Source: Candidatus Kaiserbacteria bacterium (GTDB lineage: Bacteria > Patescibacteriota > Minisyncoccia > Phycocordibacterales > UBA2100). Taken from it: DNA of 64,000 nt. Below, piece after piece: positions 3,147-16,202 of this stretch. The notes beneath the pieces are model-generated. The model did no database searches. It was not told the origin of the DNA and saw nothing but the letters and a program-made list of their open reading frames with translations. Numbering within the stretch: the stretch's first letter is position 1; each line of letters starts with the position of its first letter. The stretch is from NCBI GenBank assembly GCA_016432285.1, contig CP066682.1:288933-352932 (forward strand), given 5' to 3'. The translations under genes and the position numbers were made by a program.

Positions 3147-3941
3147 GTGAGGAAAAAGCTAAGTCCGTGGCTAGAGACGAGTATTGAATACGCTAGTCAG
3201 CGTAGTTATTTGGACGACCTATTCCACGTGTACCCCACTATTCCCGAGGGAATACGCGATATTGACAGTGGCCTCTGGAAAGATGTCGAAAAAGCGTTCG
3301 AGAAACGTGATAATGTCGAGCTGCTTGAAAATCTCCTCAAGCTGGAACTGTTTCCGATAAAGGATTCATACGTCGCCTATCTCAAGCGCGATAAAGGTGC
3401 ATTAAAGCGGAACCCCGCCACGGCCGATCGGCTCGCGGGCCGCTTGTACGAGATGGGCCTCGATGAGATTTTCTCACGTTCATCCGAGCCGAAAGAGACC
3501 AACAGACAGATTGGGCCGTTATTCAAGCGGTGGTTGAGAAATAAGTCTCTGGGCGTCGAGCCTTTACGACTCGAAGCTTTCTTGAGCGCGAAAGGAAACG
3601 CGGTCTTGGACGGTAGCGATGCCGAGATGATGACTTTCGCACGGGAGCATCTCAACTACAAGCACAATAAAGGACTCGACTTCATCGGCCGCTTCAATGG
3701 AAAGTACGTCATCGGCGAAGCAAAGTTTTTAACCGATTTCGGCGGACATCAAAACGCGCAATTCAACGACGCTGTTGCGACGGTAAAGGCGCGCGGAGTG
3801 AAGGCCATTACTGTTGCAATTCTCGACGGGGTTCTCTACATCCGGGGAAAGAATAAAATGTTCAAGGACGTCACCGGTCGTCTGAGAGACGAAAACATCA
3901 TGAGCGCCTTGGTGCTACGAGAGTTTCTTTATCAAATCTAG
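3147..3941 (+). CDS. putative type II restriction endonuclease (PD-(D/E)xK)
   Basis: 264 aa, 4 nt upstream of the methyltransferase. LDF...IGEAKF reads as a D...ExK motif. Lower GC than the flanks. Confidence 0.5.
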   Translation: MRKKLSPWLETSIEYASQRSYLDDLFHVYPTIPEGIRDIDSGLWKDVEKAFEKRDNVELLENLLKLELFPIKDSYVAYLKRDKGALKRNPATADRLAGRLYEMGLDEIFSRSSEPKETNRQIGPLFKRWLRNKSLGVEPLRLEAFLSAKGNAVLDGSDAEMMTFAREHLNYKHNKGLDFIGRFNGKYVIGEAKFLTDFGGHQNAQFNDAVATVKARGVKAITVAILDGVLYIRGKNKMFKDVTGRLRDENIMSALVLREFLYQI

Positions 3942-3945
3942 TGCC

Positions 3946-5112
3946 ATGAAAATCACTTACGACAACAAAAAGTCTGAGCGAGACATCCTCGAAAATGCTC
4001 CGAGAGCAGAATTGTGCGTCGTCGCAGGGGAGGGTGCAGAAAACAAGCTCATTCACTCTGATAACCTCGCCGCACTCAAAGCTCTACTAGACGACTATGC
4101 TGGGAAGGTCGATTTAATTTATATCGACCCCCCGTTTGCCACCAACGGACACTTCAAAATCAGCGACGGCAGGGCAAACACCGTAAGCAGTAGTAATGAC
4201 GATGCTATAGCGTACAGCGACACTATTGTTGGCGAGGAGTTTTTGGAATTTCTTCGCGAACGGTTGATTTTCCTCCGCGAGCTTCTGTCGGAGCGTGGCT
4301 CAATTTACCTTCATATCGATTACAAAATCGGCCACTATGTAAAACTCGTCATGGACGAAGTGTTCGGGCGCGGAATGTTCCGAAACGACATCTCACGAAT
4401 CAAATGCAACCCCAAAAACTTCAATCGCAAGGCATACGGTAACATCAAAGACTTGATACTTTTTTACTCAAAATCCACGGCGCCGACATGGAATGATCCG
4501 CGCGTCTCTTTTTCAGAAGAAGATGAGCGACGTCTGTTTAAAAAATTGGACAGCAGCGGGCGGCGGTACACCACTATTCCGCTCCATGCGCCTGGAGAAA
4601 CCGTAAACGGAAATACGAACAAAGTGTGGAAAGGTATGAAGCCGCCAAAAGGGCGACATTGGAGGACTGACCCTGCGATTCTGGCGGAATGGGACAAACA
4701 GGGATTGATTGAATGGTCGGCAAATGGTGTTCCGCGGAAGAAGATCTTTTTCGACGAAAGAGGTGGGAAGAAGGTGCAGGATATTTGGGAGTTCAAAGAT
4801 CCACAATATCCGAAATATCCTACCGAAAAGAATTTGGATTTGCTGAAGTTCATTATTGAAGCGTCGTCGAATGAAGGGGATCTGGTTCTGGATTGTTTTG
4901 CTGGCTCCGGAACTACGCTTGTTGCGGCGCATTCCCTCGGTCGTCGCTGGATCGGGATTGATAAATCGGAGCCCGCGATAAAGGTCGTCCAAAAGCGACT
5001 CGCGGACATATCGACGGATCTGTTCTCAAAAGTTGAGTACGAGTTCCTCAAAGAAGGGTACGCTGCACCTGCGGCAACAAGTTCGAACAAATCGACACTT
5101 GTTCAAAAATAA
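3946..5112 (+). CDS. DNA methyltransferase, beta-class N4-C/N6-A (N6_N4_Mtase family)
   Basis: Motif IV IYIDPPF precedes motif I FAGSGTT. 388 aa. Confidence 0.85.
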   Translation: MKITYDNKKSERDILENAPRAELCVVAGEGAENKLIHSDNLAALKALLDDYAGKVDLIYIDPPFATNGHFKISDGRANTVSSSNDDAIAYSDTIVGEEFLEFLRERLIFLRELLSERGSIYLHIDYKIGHYVKLVMDEVFGRGMFRNDISRIKCNPKNFNRKAYGNIKDLILFYSKSTAPTWNDPRVSFSEEDERRLFKKLDSSGRRYTTIPLHAPGETVNGNTNKVWKGMKPPKGRHWRTDPAILAEWDKQGLIEWSANGVPRKKIFFDERGGKKVQDIWEFKDPQYPKYPTEKNLDLLKFIIEASSNEGDLVLDCFAGSGTTLVAAHSLGRRWIGIDKSEPAIKVVQKRLADISTDLFSKVEYEFLKEGYAAPAATSSNKSTLVQK

Positions 5113-9129: not shown

Positions 9130-9170
9130 TTCTCGGAACGACTTTTCCACAGGCTACGCACCATGCATGC

Positions 9171-9200
9171 TTGACGCCTGATACCCCCCGGGGGTATTAT
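9171..9200 (+). promoter_or_regulatory. promoter (TTGACG-18-TATTAT) overlapped by the 17-bp palindrome ATACCCCCCGGGGGTAT (CsoR-type operator)
   Basis: GC-rich perfect inverted repeat at 9181..9197 between -35 and -10. The csoR ATG at 9209 makes the transcript leaderless or nearly so. Confidence 0.6.
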
Positions 9201-9208
9201 GCGGGCAT

Positions 9209-9478
9209 ATGAGATCACCGATCAAGCAAAAGGCGCTGCGGCGCCTCAAGATTATCGAGGGGCAGGTGCGCGGGCTCCGGAGCATGGTGGAGGAGGAGAA
9301 GTACTGCGTGGACATCATTACCCAGTCCAACGCGGTCAAAGAGGCGCTCTCCGGCGTCGAGGATTTGGTGCTCGAAAATCACCTCTCGACCCACGTGCGG
9401 CACCAGATGAAGAGCGGGAAGGACGCGAAGGCGATCGAGGAGGTCATGAAGATCTACAAGCTCGCGCAGAAGAAATAA
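9209..9478 (+). CDS. csoR: CsoR/RcnR-family metal-sensing transcriptional repressor
   Basis: 89 aa. LRRLKIIEGQVRGLRSMVEEEKYCVDIITQ...HLSTHV matches the DUF156 metalloregulator pattern. Confidence 0.8.
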   Translation: MRSPIKQKALRRLKIIEGQVRGLRSMVEEEKYCVDIITQSNAVKEALSGVEDLVLENHLSTHVRHQMKSGKDAKAIEEVMKIYKLAQKK

Positions 9479-9587: not shown

Positions 9588-9935
9588 ATGGATACGAAAT
9601 TGATTACAGGCATCGTCGGCGGACTGATCGTAGGCGCTCTCGCGGGCTTCTACCTCTCTCCCGGCTCGAGCTCGCAGAGCGCGAGCGGCATGACGAGTGA
9701 GATGAACAACGCAGGCATGATGATGCAGCAGGGCGGCTCGTCGATGATGCAGATGGGGCAGATGATGATGTCGGCTGGGCAGATGATGCAGCAGAAAGGC
9801 ACGCAGTACGAAGATTCGGAGATGATGCAGAGCGGCAAGGAGCTTGAGACGAGCGGCAACACCATGATGCAGCAAGGCAAGGAACTCTCGGACGAGAGCG
9901 GACCACTGATGCAGGGCATGCAAATGGGTCAGTAA
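9588..9935 (+). CDS. Met-rich membrane-anchored protein (putative Cu(I)-binding)
   Basis: N-terminal TM, then MMMQQGGSSMMQMGQMMMSAGQMMQQ-type repeats. About 25% Met. Confidence 0.55.
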   Translation: MDTKLITGIVGGLIVGALAGFYLSPGSSSQSASGMTSEMNNAGMMMQQGGSSMMQMGQMMMSAGQMMQQKGTQYEDSEMMQSGKELETSGNTMMQQGKELSDESGPLMQGMQMGQ

Positions 9936-10239: not shown

Positions 10240-10680
10240 ATGAGCACCACCCCAAAACCAGCACTCTTCGGGCTTCTTGCGAGTACATCGCTTCTTGCGG
10301 TGTACTTCGCGGTGCTCACGCTGGTTTCGGGGTGGAGCTTCGCGCAGAATCAGTTCGCAACCTACTGGTACTTCATCGTGAGCCTTGCGCTCGGTTTTGG
10401 AGTACAGATCGGACTCTACACGTATCTCCGCAGATTGCTTGCCGGCATGCACGGCGAAGGAAGGGTCGTGGGGGTAACGGGCACGACCTCGGCACTCGCG
10501 ATGATCTCGTGCTGCGCTCACTACCTCGCCAACCTGCTTCCGATCCTCGGCGCGGTGGGGCTCGTCACCTTCGTCGCGTCCTACCAGACGCAGCTTTTCT
10601 GGATCGGCCTCCTCTTCAATCTCGGCGGGACCCTCTTCATGGCAAACCGCATCCGCTCGTTCAAGAAAATGCACGTATGA
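10240..10680 (+). CDS. membrane protein with CC motif (uncharacterised)
   Basis: 146 aa, 4 TM, ISCCAHY in a helix. Confidence 0.5.
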   Translation: MSTTPKPALFGLLASTSLLAVYFAVLTLVSGWSFAQNQFATYWYFIVSLALGFGVQIGLYTYLRRLLAGMHGEGRVVGVTGTTSALAMISCCAHYLANLLPILGAVGLVTFVASYQTQLFWIGLLFNLGGTLFMANRIRSFKKMHV

Positions 10681-11138
10681 AAAACGCGTTGCTCTACATA
10701 AGCGTCGCACTCCTCGTCGGGCTCGGGATCTATGCGTTTGCAATACGCGGGCAGGAGAGCGCGGCGCCTGCCAGTGTGCAATCGAATGTGCTGGCGGAAG
10801 GCACGTGGGAGACGAAGACCAATAACGAGGCGTCGGTCACGGTGGCCGTAACGCCGCTCTCGCTGGGTGGGAGCGCTTCCGAGTGGCGGTTCAAGGTGGT
10901 CTTAGACACGCACACGGGCAGCCTCGACCGGGATCTTCTTGAAACGACCACGCTGTCAGACGGCTCAGGCGCGACCTACCGCGCTTCGCGCTGGGAAGGC
11001 GATCCACCCGGCGGGCATCACCGCGAAGGGGAGCTGACCTTCGAGCGAATCGACCCGACTCCTTCACGCATTACCATTCGTATAAACGATCTTGGCGGCG
11101 TCCCGGAAAGGACCTTGAGCTGGGACATCCAAAAATAA
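10677..11138 (+). CDS. secreted hypothetical protein
   Basis: ATGA start/stop overlap with the upstream gene. N-terminal TM or signal, beta-rich domain with GGHH. Confidence 0.55.
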
Positions 11139-11547: not shown

Positions 11548-12408
11548 ATGGATATTCTCACCAACGTATCGATCGTCGCGGCGTTCATCGCCGGAGTTGC
11601 GGCGCTCTTCGCGCCGTGCTGTATCACGGTGCTGCTTCCGTCGTACCTCGGCTCGGTCTTTCAGGAGCGCTACAAGGTCCTGCTCATGACGTTTGTCTTT
11701 TTCCTCGGCATCCTCGCGGTCTTTCTTCCCATCGGCCTCGGGGCCGCCGCGCTCGCGCGCTTTTTCAACACCTACCACAATTTCATCTTCACGCTCGGGG
11801 GACTCATGCTCTCCGGACTTGGTATCGCGCTCATCCTCGGCAAAACGTTCTCGATTCCTTCGCCGGTCTCTGCGCGCTTTGCTGGCACGGGCGCGCTCTC
11901 GATCTTTCTGCTCGGCGTCTTTTCGGCCGTGGCAACGACGTGCTGCGCACCCGTGCTCGCGGGCGTCCTCGCGCTCTCTGCGGCGAGCGGCAGTATCTTC
12001 TGGGGCGGCATCTACACCTTGAGCTACGTGCTCGGCATGGTTGCGCCACTCTTTCTCATCGCCGTCTTCCTCGACAAAGTGGATTTCACGGAGCGGTTCG
12101 CGACGCTGCATAAAACACGCACAGCTAAGATCGGGCGCTTCGAGTGGACGTTCAAACCCGCGGAGCTTGTTGCCGGACTCGTGTTCCTCGGGATGGGGAT
12201 CTACATCATCTACCTCGCGCTTGCGAATCAGCTCACCATGGAAGGGGGCTACCAGCTCGAGATCAATCTCTTCTTTGCCAACCTCGTACACTCCGTACAC
12301 CGCTACACGCAGACTATCCCAGAGATCGCGTGGGCCCTCTTCGTACTGGCTGCGCTTGTTCTCATCGCGTGGTTTTCCATTTATCAGTTTATTCGCATTA
12401 AAAAGTAA
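11548..12408 (+). CDS. CcdA/DsbD-family thiol:disulfide transmembrane electron carrier
   Basis: 286 aa. Cys pairs inside TM helices: FAPCCITVLLP and ATTCCAPVLAG. Confidence 0.7.
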   Translation: MDILTNVSIVAAFIAGVAALFAPCCITVLLPSYLGSVFQERYKVLLMTFVFFLGILAVFLPIGLGAAALARFFNTYHNFIFTLGGLMLSGLGIALILGKTFSIPSPVSARFAGTGALSIFLLGVFSAVATTCCAPVLAGVLALSAASGSIFWGGIYTLSYVLGMVAPLFLIAVFLDKVDFTERFATLHKTRTAKIGRFEWTFKPAELVAGLVFLGMGIYIIYLALANQLTMEGGYQLEINLFFANLVHSVHRYTQTIPEIAWALFVLAALVLIAWFSIYQFIRIKK

Positions 12409-12413
12409 TCGCT

Positions 12414-13001
12414 ATGGAAAATAGCTCAAAAACGTTCGTCGTCGTTGGTCTTATCGTACTTGCGGTCGTCATCGCGCTTGTCGCGCTCTTTAATACCAAT
12501 CCGTCCGGCGCGGCGCGTGAAGCAGGAGGAGTGGGCGCCGATCTCATCGGCGCGCCGCTTCCCTCGGTCACGCTCTACGACAAAGACGGAAAGGCGTACC
12601 CCATGGAAAGCCTCGCGGGCAAAAACGTGGTGCTCTTTTTTAACGAGGGCCTCATGTGCTACCCGGCGTGCTGGGACCAGATGACCGCATTCGGCGCGGA
12701 TCCGCGTTTCAACAGCGACGAGACCGTCGCCCTCTCGGTCGTCGTGGATTCCCCCGCAGACTGGCAGCAGGCTATCGCCAAGATGCCGGAGCTTTCGAAG
12801 GCTGCGACTCTCTTCGACCAGGGCGCCGCCGTTTCCCGGCAGCTCGGTGTTCTCTCGTACGGCTCGTCGATGCATGCTGGGCAGCTTCCGGGACACACCT
12901 ACGTCCTCCTCGACAAAGCGGGGATCGTGCGCGAGGTGTTCGACGATCCGAACATGGGCGTGAACAACGACGCGATCATGCAAAAGATCTCGGCCTTCTA
13001 G
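12414..13001 (+). CDS. Sco1/SenC-like thioredoxin-fold protein (CxxxC copper chaperone-like)
   Basis: N-terminal TM. VVLFFNEGLMCYPAC reads as CxxxC, with a downstream His (SMHAGQLPGHTYVLLDKAG) as in Sco proteins. Confidence 0.6.
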   Translation: MENSSKTFVVVGLIVLAVVIALVALFNTNPSGAAREAGGVGADLIGAPLPSVTLYDKDGKAYPMESLAGKNVVLFFNEGLMCYPACWDQMTAFGADPRFNSDETVALSVVVDSPADWQQAIAKMPELSKAATLFDQGAAVSRQLGVLSYGSSMHAGQLPGHTYVLLDKAGIVREVFDDPNMGVNNDAIMQKISAF

Positions 13002-13428: not shown

Positions 13429-13456
13429 TTGACATCATACCCCCCGGGGGTATCAT
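13429..13456 (+). promoter_or_regulatory. promoter (TTGACA-16-TATCAT) overlapped by a second copy of the palindrome ATACCCCCCGGGGGTAT
   Basis: Identical 17-mer at 13437..13453, 10 nt before the ATPase start codon. Confidence 0.6.
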
Positions 13457-13462
13457 AGCACC

Positions 13463-15700
13463 ATGACCAACAAACACGCACAACACGAAACGCATCAGAA
13501 AGGGAAGTCGAGCGCCGAAGAGAGCGCGATCTACACGTGCCCGATGCATTCGGAGGTGCGGCAGAAAGGTCCTGGCAAGTGCCCGGGCTGCGGCATGGAT
13601 CTGATCCCCGCCAGAACCCCTGCGGTCACCTCCGCGAAAGAGGGGACAAGCGAACATGCGGGCCACGATATGCAGGAGGTGAGTCACATGGATCACGAGG
13701 CCGCGATGACGAACCCGCAGATGGCAAAGCAGATGGAAGCCGACATGCGCCGCCGCTTTGTGATCTCGTTCCTGCTTTCGATCCCGATTTTCCTCTATTC
13801 GCCGGTGATGACGAGCTTTTTTGATATCACGCTCCCATCTCCGATTCCGGTCAACTGGCTGCTCTTTCTACTCACGACCCCGATCGTCTTCTGGACCGGC
13901 TCGATTTTCATCACCGGCACGTACTATTCGCTGAAAGCGCGGACCCTCAACATGGCGGTTCTCATCGCGACCGGCGTCCTCGCCGCCTACCTTTTCAGCG
14001 TGCTCCTTACCGTGGTGCAGCCCGAGGCGGAGACGTTCTACGAGGCGGCCGCGCTCCTCGTCACTTTCGTGCTCTTCGGCCACTGGATGGAAATGAAATC
14101 GCGCCGCGGCACATCTGACGCCTTGCGGGCTCTCTTTGATCTCGTCCCGCCGAAAGCACTCGTTGTTCGTGGTGGCAAAGAGATCAGCATCCCGAGCGCC
14201 GAAATCGTGCACGGCGATATCGTGGTCCTACGACCGGGCGATAAGGTGCCGGTCGACGGGGAGATCGTTGAGGGCGAGTCCTCCATCGACGAATCGCTCG
14301 TGACGGGAGAATCAATCCCTGTCGCGAAGAGCATCGGTGGCAAAGTGGTTGGCGGCTCGGTGAACCAGACGGGCACGCTGAAATTTAAAGCCACCGAGGT
14401 CGGCTCTGAAACCGTGCTCGCGCAGATCATCAAGCTGGTCGAGACCGCGCAAAACTCCAAAGCGCCCGGGCAGCGCATCGCGGATCGGGCGGCGGGCTGG
14501 CTCGTGGTGCTCGCGATCGGCTCCGGCCTCGCTGCCTTTTTCGGGTGGTACTTCGGGGCGAATGCGGGGCTTCTCACGGCGCTCACTTTTGCGATCTCGA
14601 CGGTGGTGATCGCATGTCCCGACGCGCTGGGGCTCGCGACGCCGACGGCTGTCGCCGTCGGCACAGGCATCGGCGCGAAGCACAACATTCTCATCAAGGA
14701 TGCCGCGACTTTGGAAAACACCTCGCGCCTCACCGCGATCGTGCTCGATAAAACGGGGACGCTGACGGAAGGCAAGCCGAAGGTAACGGAGATCGTCGCC
14801 GCTCCCGGCTACCAGAAAGACGATGTGCTTGCGCTCGAAGCGGCGGCGGAAAAGGGATCAAATCATCCGATCAGCGCCGCGATCCTCGAGGAAGCGCAGA
14901 GGCGGGGAGTTGCAACCGCGAGGCGAATCGAGAAGTTTGAGGCCATCGGCGGGCACGGCGTGCGCGCGACGGCAGACGGAAAAGTACTGCTCGCGGGCAC
15001 CGAGCGCCTCATGGAGACCAACAACGTCGATCTCTCTCCGATCAAGAAAGACATCGACCGCCTCCTTCAAAGCGGTAATACGATCAGCATTCTCTCGGTC
15101 GACGGCAAGGCGGCGGGCGCGATTGGCGTTGCTGACACGATCCGGCCTTCCGCTCGAAAAGCCATCGCCGCGATGAAGCGTTTGGGGCTCGAGGTAGCAA
15201 TGATTACCGGCGACCATACGGAAGTCGCGAAGGCCGTCTCGAGCGATCTTGGCATCGATCGCTACTTCGCGCAGGTCTTGCCGGAAGATAAAGCGAAGTA
15301 CGTCAAAAAGCTCCAAGACGAAGGCAAGTTCGTTGCGATGGTGGGCGATGGGATCAACGATGCGCCGGCCCTGGCCCAATCCGACATCGGGATCGCGATC
15401 GGCGCTGGCACAGATGTCGCAATCGAGACGGGCAATATCGTCCTCATGAAATCTGACCCGTACGACATCGTCGCGGCACTGAGGCTCAGTAAAGCGACCG
15501 TCGTCAAAATGAAGCAGAATCTTTTCTGGGCAGCGATCTACAACGTGCTGGCGATTCCCGTCGCGGCCGGCGTCTTCTACACCTGGCTCGGCTGGTCGCT
15601 GCGGCCCGAGATCTCAGCGCTTCTCATGTCGGCTTCTTCAATCATCGTCGCCACCAATGCAGTCTTACTGAAGCGCGTCGAGTCGAAGCTGAAGCTCTAA
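13463..15700 (+). CDS. P1B-type heavy-metal (copper) translocating ATPase, atypical CPD transmembrane motif
   Basis: 745 aa. N-terminal His-rich stretch plus HMBD (YTCPMHSEV...CPGCGMDL). Contains DKTGTLT and GDGINDAP. TM6 reads IACPDALGLATP (CPD, not CPC). TM7 has YN and TM8 has MSASS. Confidence 0.9.
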   Translation: MTNKHAQHETHQKGKSSAEESAIYTCPMHSEVRQKGPGKCPGCGMDLIPARTPAVTSAKEGTSEHAGHDMQEVSHMDHEAAMTNPQMAKQMEADMRRRFVISFLLSIPIFLYSPVMTSFFDITLPSPIPVNWLLFLLTTPIVFWTGSIFITGTYYSLKARTLNMAVLIATGVLAAYLFSVLLTVVQPEAETFYEAAALLVTFVLFGHWMEMKSRRGTSDALRALFDLVPPKALVVRGGKEISIPSAEIVHGDIVVLRPGDKVPVDGEIVEGESSIDESLVTGESIPVAKSIGGKVVGGSVNQTGTLKFKATEVGSETVLAQIIKLVETAQNSKAPGQRIADRAAGWLVVLAIGSGLAAFFGWYFGANAGLLTALTFAISTVVIACPDALGLATPTAVAVGTGIGAKHNILIKDAATLENTSRLTAIVLDKTGTLTEGKPKVTEIVAAPGYQKDDVLALEAAAEKGSNHPISAAILEEAQRRGVATARRIEKFEAIGGHGVRATADGKVLLAGTERLMETNNVDLSPIKKDIDRLLQSGNTISILSVDGKAAGAIGVADTIRPSARKAIAAMKRLGLEVAMITGDHTEVAKAVSSDLGIDRYFAQVLPEDKAKYVKKLQDEGKFVAMVGDGINDAPALAQSDIGIAIGAGTDVAIETGNIVLMKSDPYDIVAALRLSKATVVKMKQNLFWAAIYNVLAIPVAAGVFYTWLGWSLRPEISALLMSASSIIVATNAVLLKRVESKLKL

Positions 15701-15707
15701 CATTCAT

Positions 15708-16202
15708 ATGAACGAGATAGGTACGTTTGTACGGAACCCGCTCGCGCTCGCTGGCTTCCTCGTGCTCCTCGGCGCGTTCGCTTTCATTTTGCTACGCAAG
15801 CCCGCTCCGCCCTTTTCTGCGACGATCGGCTCGTGTCGCGTGGGAGAGGCGTGCCCGGGGGGCGCGCAATTGAGCAGCGTTCCAACCATCGAAAGCAACG
15901 AGCTCGTGGCTGCGCTTGAGGTGAAAGATTTTTTCTTCGTAAACGTTCACACGCCATACCAAGGAGAGATCGGTAAGACTGACGCATTCATTCGGTACGA
16001 CGAAATAGGAGACAATCTCGACAAGCTGCCGCAAGACAAAAGCGTGAAGATCGTTCTCTACTGTCAGAGTGGCCGCATGAGCGAGATTGCCGCAAAAAAG
16101 CTCGCGTCGCTCGGATACACCAACGTCTCCCACCTTAAAGGCGGCATGGTCGAGTGGGAGAAGGAAGGGTACGAACTCATCCGGGAGGGAAGCGCACGGT
16201 AG
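15708..16202 (+). CDS. membrane-anchored rhodanese-domain sulfurtransferase
   Basis: N-terminal TM. Active-site loop IVLYCQSGRMS. Confidence 0.75.
   Translation: MNEIGTFVRNPLALAGFLVLLGAFAFILLRKPAPPFSATIGSCRVGEACPGGAQLSSVPTIESNELVAALEVKDFFFVNVHTPYQGEIGKTDAFIRYDEIGDNLDKLPQDKSVKIVLYCQSGRMSEIAAKKLASLGYTNVSHLKGGMVEWEKEGYELIREGSAR

Follow-up and report, generated by a model that had tools for sequence, protein, structure and literature searches.

The 64-kb window of Candidatus Kaiserbacteria DNA analysed here (contig CP066682.1 of assembly GCA_016432285.1, positions 288,933 to 352,932) encodes a P1B-type ATPase in which the metal-site motif of transmembrane segment 4 (TM4) reads Cys-Pro-Asp (CPD). 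The CPx motif of TM4 is the hallmark by which heavy-metal pumps are sorted and their substrates predicted. We consider it likely that this protein, in which Asp is the third CPx residue, is a copper-exporting pump of the CopB lineage, whose namesake members carry Cys-Pro-His (CPH), and that its synthesis is derepressed via CsoR. The gene and its motifs, their conservation, the clade in which the protein falls, the sequences of the operator box and the repressor and the gene context were observed directly and are presented below (coordinates in Table 1).

All motifs of class 1B P-type ATPases are present in the pump (T281GES, D429KTGT, S466NHP at residues 466-469 and G628DGINDAP at residues 628-635). 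Pfam finds E1-E2_ATPase, Hydrolase and HMBD domains and no HMA domain, and the protein scores far above the cut-offs of both TIGR01525 for heavy-metal P-type ATPases (596 versus 346 bits) and TIGR01511 for the copper subfamily (571 versus 397 bits). The original prediction for this DNA had inferred a copper-type P1B pump from DKTGTLT, GDGINDAP, YN and MxxSS, and the motifs, the TIGR01511 match and the copper-related gene context bear this out. The nearest solved structures are CopA of A. fulgidus (AfCopA; 7R0G, 564 bits; 3J08/9) and of L. pneumophila (LpCopA; 3RFU, 549 bits), at E about 1e-168. In the HMMER alignment CPD, lying within the stretch IACPDALGLATP, falls exactly on the Cys-Pro-Cys (CPC) motif of 7R0G, and the TM5 signature reads Y693-N694-VLAI-P699 in full. 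For AfCopA the entry, high-affinity and M5-M6 ligands are M158, E205, D336, C380, Y682, N683, M711, S714 and S715 (PMC9433437). Their counterparts M164, E210, D341, C385, Y693, N694, M722, S725 and S726 are invariant among homologues of the pump, and the only change at the site is that from C382 of AfCopA to D387, which can reasonably be expected to alter the coordination chemistry. The M2 glutamate E194 is likewise invariant; we equate it with the exit glutamate of LpCopA. Across 46 close homologues 331 alignment columns are invariant. An AlphaFold2 (AF2) model computed with these homologues shows eight helices (MA, MB and M1-M6, at residues 85-111, 130-158, 164-185, 191-225, 335-365, 370-392, 666-701 and 715-738) with CPD in M4, in agreement with the hydropathy segments, but its confidence is low (mean predicted local distance difference test score, pLDDT, 66, with 43-53 around TM4; predicted template modelling score 0.53), so that we draw no structural conclusions on the metal site from it.

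The aspartate is a genuine and conserved feature. CPD is found in 120 of the 120 closest database homologues, which share 74-100% identity with the pump and come from Kaiser-, Adler-, Wildermuth- and Magasanikbacteria, Paceibacterota and others; one of them, P0001 from a Candidatus Kaiserbacteria metagenome-assembled genome (MAG), is 100% identical. A species-level scan with one genome per species yielded 565 or more related loci, and our locus comparisons refer to the best 80 of them. These are nearly all from Patescibacteria, in which many classes are represented; one Woesearchaeota MAG and one MAG of Acidimicrobiia are also among them. The matched gene encodes CPD in every locus. Their codons vary freely in the silent position (Asp as GAT in 50 and GAC in 30 loci, Cys as TGT in 51 and TGC in 29), and all synonymous combinations occur. 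Since the codons vary synonymously while Asp is constant, the residue is under purifying selection. That sequencing or assembly went wrong at the Asp codon, or that the gene is an inactive relic, has a negligible probability: independent assemblies show CPD in 120/120 and 80/80 cases, all three codons vary synonymously, and the reading frame is intact, with every catalytic motif and the invariant columns mentioned above. On the strength of 200 out of 200 relatives with CPD and of the codon variation we reject both error and pseudogene. Checks for a sequencing error and for conservation of Asp in orthologs had been proposed together with the original prediction; the orthologs carry CPD throughout, and neither a Cys codon (TGC) at the third position nor uniform CPC in the orthologs was found. 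That prediction had also read the codons correctly as tgt ccc gac, which stand at 14615..14623, but the interval it gave for re-examination, 14629..14637, lies 14 nt downstream and encodes G-L-A.

The original prediction, right in substance, had framed the motif as an altered CPC, which turned out to be misleading. Among 1.84 billion cluster representatives the best 150 matches comprise 130 CPC, 7 CPH, 9 CPD and 1 SPD pumps, the CPD representatives including P0124, a Roseiflexaceae protein and a Candidatus Aquicultor protein. Raw identity is uninformative on class, being 44-47% to CPC and CPH pumps alike. In neighbour-joining (NJ) trees from 647-671 well-aligned columns, however, CPD and CPH pumps together are separated from all 45-46 CPC representatives with 98-100% bootstrap support. 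The CPH pumps are monophyletic (92-96% NJ bootstrap), whereas monophyly of all CPD pumps was obtained in 0.5% of bootstraps. A single monophyletic CPD family is therefore not supported; the CPD lineages form an unresolved grade around the CPH clade, a shape with which either Asp or His would agree as the ancestral state.

Class-specific residues tell the same story as the trees. L347, A351 and G355 of TM3, which lie on one helical face because of their i, i+4, i+8 spacing, are present in 13/13 CPD and 7/7 CPH pumps, in place of the F (100%), V (93%) and A (91%) of 46 CPC sequences. This face co-varies with the third CPx residue and, from the helical periodicity, is inferred to pack against residue 387, where it would make room for a residue other than Cys. 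M683 of the CPD and CPH pumps is I in CPC pumps. Few columns are near-fixed in CPC but different in CPD, and at every such column of the pump core the CPD pumps agree with the CPH pumps, except at 387 itself (D, H or C). A His/Met-rich stretch directly before helix MA, ending in [DE][MF][RK]x[RK]F, is common to all CPD subclades and the CPH pumps and missing from CPC pumps, as is the MA motif (S/T)(I/V/L)P...SP; in the window pump's 46 homologues H78, M82, M91, D94, M95, R98 and F99 of this segment are invariant. TM6, too, goes on in the manner of CPH pumps, with S(S/T)xIVAxNA. Phylogeny, signature columns and the shared pre-MA segment rule out a CopA with a point change. Given membership of the CopB/CPH lineage, the relevant exchange is therefore between His and Asp, not from Cys to Asp, and the codons concerned (CAY and GAY) are one base apart. 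As judged from these alignments, the pump belongs to the CopB lineage, and Asp has taken the place of His in it, or the reverse.

Neither established copper class accommodates the pump completely. With CopA-type pumps such as 7R0G and 3RFU it shares the eight-helix topology, the Met, Glu and Asp of the entry site, the M2 glutamate, YN(x)4P, MxxSS and the TIGR01511 match, as expected of P1B-1; it differs from them in having Asp for the second Cys of CPC, no N-terminal HMA domain with CxxC, L/A/G instead of F/V/A in TM3 and a position outside the CPC group. CopB-type pumps (former P1B-3; CopB of E. hirae, A. fulgidus and S. aureus) share with it the clade, with the CPD+CPH bipartition and the class-specific columns attesting common ancestry, and also L347/A351/G355, M683, the pre-MA segment and the TM6 continuation. 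Measured against the published definition of that family, which requires CPH, GYN(x)4P in TM5 and MSxST in TM6 (PMC5552934), the pump has CPD, IYN(x)4P and MSASS. In other CPD subclades GYN is found in Rhodococcus and Nitrobacter and MSAST in Deinococcus, Meiothermus and Aquicultor. Further differences from CopB are the additional HMBD and a far lower histidine content: the first 100 residues hold 8 His (5 of them in residues 64-78) and 9 Met, while classic CopB proteins taken for comparison (P0202, P0210, P0257) have 18-20 His within about 45-90 residues. The N-terminus, earlier described as His-rich, is so to a moderate degree, far below that of classic CopB. The family definition also names a His-rich N-terminal metal-binding region of 30-100 aa (PMC5552934); in position and end motif the segment of the pump is homologous to that of CopB, with much less His. 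One relative of the CPD group, P0191, reads SPD (IIVASPDALALATP) and lacks both classic Cys residues of CPC; no DKTGT can be detected in it, and the gene may be decayed or fragmentary.

In our searches of the open-access literature a single paper mentions CPD for P1B pumps, and we found no biochemistry of a CPD pump there: Cubillas et al. reported in 2017 a 'novel CPD motif' in three Rhizobiales pumps and treated these as a new P1B-3 subtype without experiments (PMC5552934). Because of this report and of its wide occurrence in cultured bacteria, the motif, which had been placed outside the commonly described subgroups, cannot count as undescribed. In a tblastn search of 72,556 plasmids CPD pumps ranked top, and all 8 best hits that we opened proved to be CPD. 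The hosts are Nitrobacter hamburgensis X14, Rhodococcus sp. 008, Deinococcus sp. NW-56, Acidovorax sp. T1, Streptomyces sp. FR1, Mycolicibacterium gilvum Spyr1, Meiothermus taiwanensis and Phenylobacterium zucineum. We distinguish four lineages: A, the Patescibacteria clade of the window together with Roseiflexaceae (100% bootstrap); B, Proteobacteria and Actinobacteria, including the published Nitrobacter protein (94%); C, Deinococcus and Meiothermus (100%); and D, Aquicultor. The published Rhizobiales pumps (cluster VIc, found in Xanthobacter autotrophicus, in Nitrobacter hamburgensis and in a Bradyrhizobium sp.; PMC5552934) resemble the window pump in CPD, YN(x)4P, MSxSS and their place beside the CPH pumps, and in WP_011505191, the plasmid-encoded protein of N. 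hamburgensis, we verified CPD. They differ in forming a separate subclade (94%, against 100% for that of the window), in GYN and MSGSS, and in an N-terminus made of a degenerate HMA fold without CxxC plus CG[YF]HC instead of an HMBD. Two of the 80 loci, in the Woesearchaeota (a DPANN archaeon) MAG and the Acidimicrobiia assembly (L050 and L056), encode pumps 66-68% identical to that of the window, which could reflect horizontal transfer among ultra-small groundwater organisms or binning errors. In public annotation CPD pumps are labelled 'copper-translocating' or 'heavy metal translocating P-type ATPase'.

The N-terminal domain was correctly called an HMBD and not an HMA domain, given the PF19335 match and the lack of an HMA hit. 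Its candidate metal ligands are C26, H29, C40 and C43, and C26, M28, H29, C40, P41, C43, G44 and M45 are invariant in the 46 homologues; the AF2 model gives it short beta strands (pLDDT 72-78) and no ferredoxin-like fold. The domain is, however, not special to CPD pumps, and we reject it as a defining CPD partner: it also occurs on CPC and CPH representatives, and a motif test detects it in 51/80 loci of lineage A and misses it in 29. In lineages B and C a degenerate HMA fold without CxxC is followed by CG[YF]HC or a Cys cluster. Since the HMBD differs between lineages and occurs on CPC and CPH pumps, it is best regarded as a swappable accessory and not as a signature of CPD. The CPD pumps of cultured bacteria (L001-L004 and L085-L088) carry this CxxC-less HMA-like domain, then CG[YF]HC(A/S)G, or a Cys cluster in Deinococcota, and then a His/Met-rich linker; we know of no description of this arrangement. 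In the public gene model P0001, of 718 aa, the protein begins at Met28, which cuts the HMBD after its first Cys (window 13463..13543). The position of the promoter and the conservation of Y24, T25 and C26 lead us to favour the ATG at 13463 as the true start.

The predicted control region points to repression by CsoR. In the pump promoter the ATG comes 6 nt after the end of the -10 hexamer, a spacing that points to a leaderless mRNA. The 17-mer box occurs twice in the window, compared with 0.03 copies expected, and the predicted box ATACCCCCCGGGGGTAT fits the box ATACCCCnnnGGGGTAT published for C. glutamicum CsoR (PMC5057107). A CsoR-family gene nearby and a GC-rich palindromic box in the pump promoter, both of which are looked for in a CsoR regulon, are present. 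The x-C-H-H cluster of these repressors, typified by T. thermophilus CsoR, has been assigned to Cu sensing (PMC8643695); the Thermus protein reportedly binds Cu2+, Zn2+ and Cd2+ as well as Cu+ (PMC5057107). With the T. thermophilus type the window repressor shares the Pfam family Trns_repr_metal and the fingerprint C33/H58/H62, but it has no N-terminal His equivalent to His5. The same promoter-operator design, TTGAC followed after 4-5 nt by a box ATACCCCnnnGGGGTAT with its right arm over the -10, was found in 11 related loci (L005, L006, L010, L015, L019, L022, L026, L048, L051, L057 and L074), and the ATG follows the box by 6-11 nt in 9 of the 12 sites shown. In the window it is seen at 9170..9211 and 13429..13465. 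This suggests that leaderless, CsoR-repressed mRNAs extend across Patescibacteria. A CsoR gene is present in 28 of the related loci. Of the 23 CPD-only loci whose CsoR could be classified, 22 have the C-H-H type (a further CPD-only locus has an unclassifiable CsoR). The C-H-C type occurs in 4/4 loci that contain a CPC pump as well, and in L036 (Fisher p=2.8e-4, for loci that are related and without correction for shared ancestry). A harder ligand may have taken the place of a Cys in sensor and pump together.

Our proposal for how the system works takes copper as the substrate, the direction of transport, the role of each residue and the mode of regulation from the comparisons above. At low copper the repressor would sit on the box over the -10 of the probably leaderless promoter. 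Binding of copper would release it and permit synthesis of the pump, probably along with that of a rhodanese-domain protein encoded just downstream. Cytosolic copper might be captured by the HMBD, the His/Met-rich juxtamembrane segment or both, handed to M164, E210 and D341 at the entry, moved on to a membrane site formed by C385, D387 and M722 with Y693, N694, S725 and S726, and expelled past E194 during the E1P-to-E2P step. Outside, a multicopper oxidase (MCO) and a thiol-redox module would deal with the exported metal. Where CopA has the thiolate of its second Cys and CopB an imidazole, Asp387 would offer an oxygen ligand that is anionic and cannot be oxidised. CopB-type pumps, the former P1B-3, are now regarded as Cu+ exporters (PMC10654040), and we therefore take the pump for a copper exporter.

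Several points speak against this assignment. A carboxylate is a poorer ligand for Cu+ than a thiolate or a thioether. The substrate is assigned from homology and gene context, and the AF2 model (mean pLDDT 66) is too poor to check the geometry of the site. In 8/80 loci the CPD pump has a CPC pump no more than 6 kb away, and in Rhodococcus the two are adjacent, which speaks for the CPD pump being non-redundant and not simply substituting for CopA. In the proteobacterial and actinobacterial CPD subclade the pump's neighbours (a major facilitator superfamily (MFS) transporter, phosphoketolase, ppk2) have no obvious link to copper, and the C-H-H CsoR of T. thermophilus has been reported to respond to several metals (PMC5057107). 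The harder Asp site might accordingly prefer Cu2+ or another divalent cation (Zn2+, Co2+, Ni2+, Cd2+ or Pb2+), or couple transport to protons, instead of carrying plain Cu+. We consider such altered selectivity unlikely. It would fit that a gapless alignment places Asp387 on the gating TM4 carboxylate of P2-type pumps (PD opposite the PE of the SERCA motif PEGL), that we take its position to match Glu309 of SERCA, with D387 lying 42 residues before the phosphorylated D429 at the same spacing as Glu309 before Asp351, that pump and sensor both have a harder ligand for a Cys, and that CPD and CPC pumps co-occur. CopB, too, was first described as a Cu2+ pump (as cited in PMC5552934), but that assignment has since been revised to Cu+ (PMC10654040). 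The likeness to PEGL is one of position only, to a different subfamily; all other site residues of the pump form the copper set (YN, MxxSS and the entry Met) and would not match the Zn-type set (K and DxG) or the Co-type set (SPC and HEGxT) of the Arguello classification. Wherever the gene context is informative it is copper-specific (MCO, CueP, CopZ, four-helix copper protein), and the association of sensor with pump type is uncorrected for shared ancestry. The PEGL analogy and the poor fit of a carboxylate to Cu+ nevertheless lend some probability to a different selectivity or coupling.

A broader version of this idea, of about the same doubtful standing or a shade better, is that CPD pumps and x-C-H-H CsoR proteins form a widespread 'thiol-sparing' copper system in which an O or N ligand replaces one Cys in both partners and whose selectivity or coupling is unlike that of CopA and CopB. 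It could then mean transport of Cu2+ or a mixture of Cu and Zn, proton counter-transport via the PEGL-like carboxylate or a site resistant to oxidation, and would justify a P1B subclass of its own as well as provide a natural experiment on the role of the third CPx residue. Less probable still is that the pump works as a low-rate, high-affinity exporter, like CopA2/CcoI/FixI, which supplies a secreted MCO or other exported cuproproteins and does not detoxify. An MCO gene indeed lies 1 kb downstream and within 6 kb in 13/80 loci, and some genomes have CPD pumps beside a canonical CopA. However, control by a copper-released repressor would lead to induction when copper is high, as is logical for detoxification, this is the sole P1B pump seen in the window, and it does not group with the CPC pumps, where the CopA2 and FixI types belong. 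Export by a CsoR-derepressed, CopB-lineage pump remains the explanation that we prefer.

Whether CopB-type (CPH) pumps carry Cu+ or Cu2+ was disputed for 15 years. Asp, a natural state of the third CPx residue besides Cys and His, is fixed in at least 4 well-supported lineages that include, besides the candidate phyla radiation, cultured Actinobacteria, Deinococcota and Proteobacteria. As several of these pumps occur in culturable hosts, they offer a clean natural variant for studying how the third ligand sets selectivity for metal and redox state, and characterising one member would allow correct substrate prediction for at least 565 related species-level loci. In small-genome Patescibacteria the CPD pump may be the main copper defence.

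Table 1. Features of the pump gene and its surroundings (positions in the window; E, expectation value; aa, amino acids).
Feature	Position	Strand	Remarks
CsoR box, second identical copy	9181..9197		11 nt before csoR start
CsoR-family repressor, 89 aa	9209..9478	+	fingerprint x-C33-H58-H62 (C-H-H); Pfam Trns_repr_metal PF02583 E=3.3e-26
Stand-alone HMBD protein, 71 aa	11140..11355	+	Cys/His-rich tails (C-terminal ...HKGGCCS); Pfam HMBD E=4.2e-14
CcdA/DsbD-type membrane thiol-reductant transporter	11548..12408	+	Pfam DsbD_TM; in 17/80 loci
Secreted thioredoxin/peroxiredoxin-like protein	12414..13001	+	Pfam AhpC-TSA/Redoxin; in 16/80 loci
Sigma-70-like promoter TTGACA-16-TATCAT	13429..13456	+	11/12 consensus matches
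CsoR box ATACCCCCCGGGGGTAT	13437..13453		inverted repeat; between -35 and -10, overlapping -10
P1B-type (heavy-metal) P-type ATPase, CPD variant of CopB lineage	13463..15700	+	745-aa open reading frame, ATG start
HMBD (PF19335), aa 24-50, YTCPMHSEV...GKCPGCGM	13532..13612	+	Pfam E=8.6e-11, 42 bits versus cut-off 23.6
His/Met-rich juxtamembrane segment, aa 64-99	13652..13759	+	ends DMRRRF just before helix MA
TM3 face L347/A351/G355 (i, i+4, i+8)	14501..14527	+	co-varies with third CPx residue
TM4 metal-site motif C385-P386-D387	14615..14623	+	tgt ccc gac; aligns on AfCopA CPC
DKTGTLT phosphorylation motif, aa 429-435 (D429)	14747..14767	+	
TM5 Y693-N694, YN(x)4P copper signature	15539..15544	+	invariant in homologues
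TM6 M722-S-A-S725-S726, MxxSS copper signature	15626..15640	+	then IIVATNA as in CPH pumps
Membrane-anchored rhodanese-domain protein	15708..16202	+	8 nt after ATPase stop; Pfam Rhodanese E=5e-11
Multicopper oxidase, 505 aa	16669..18186	+	Met-rich insert MNMGSMNMQGMSMMDGS; Pfam Cu-oxidase, Cu-oxidase_2, Cu-oxidase_3

The pump lies in a copper island. The closest arrangement studied experimentally is the CsoR-controlled copB-mco operon of S. aureus (PMC6191537), which has the same order of CsoR box, pump and MCO. The rhodanese-domain protein is probably co-transcribed with the pump; we rejected it as a conserved partner as it occurs in 2/80 related loci. The Met-rich insert of the MCO is, in our view, reminiscent of the Met-rich region of E. 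coli CueO. Besides the pump the window contains neither a P-type ATPase nor an HMA or CopZ gene, and the 71-aa HMBD protein is a possible metallochaperone standing in for CopZ; none of the 80 related loci showed an equivalent small open reading frame (ORF) at a distance of up to 6 kb. The CcdA/thioredoxin-like pair suggests repair of extracytoplasmic thiols damaged by copper. A 115-aa ORF without a Pfam match (9588..9935; in 5/80 loci), with one predicted N-terminal helix and a very Met/Gln-rich body (MMMQQGGSSMMQMGQMMM...), possibly encodes an extracytoplasmic copper-binding protein. Two further ORFs, at 10240..10680 and about 10701..11138, lie beside the pump in 25/80 and 24/80 loci and are commoner there than the MCO; neither has a Pfam match, one being a 146-aa membrane protein with SCCAHY and the other a signal-anchored protein of about 145 aa.

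Elsewhere the neighbourhoods of CPD pumps vary. In Rhodococcus MCO, CopZ and a CPC CopA are followed by the CPD pump and DUF305, in Deinococcus the neighbours are a four-helix copper protein, DUF305 and CueP, and in Meiothermus MCO, CopZ and a C-H-H CsoR. In the proteobacterial and actinobacterial subclade (L001, L004, L086 and L088) an MFS transporter gene repeatedly adjoins the pump, with phosphoketolase, ppk2, thymidine phosphorylase-family or phosphoribosyl pyrophosphate synthase genes nearby. These neighbours may indicate a different role for the pumps of that subclade. The window also contains a type II restriction-modification pair (3147..5112), whose endonuclease is of the Tsp45I family (E=1e-116) and whose other member is an N6/N4 DNA methylase.

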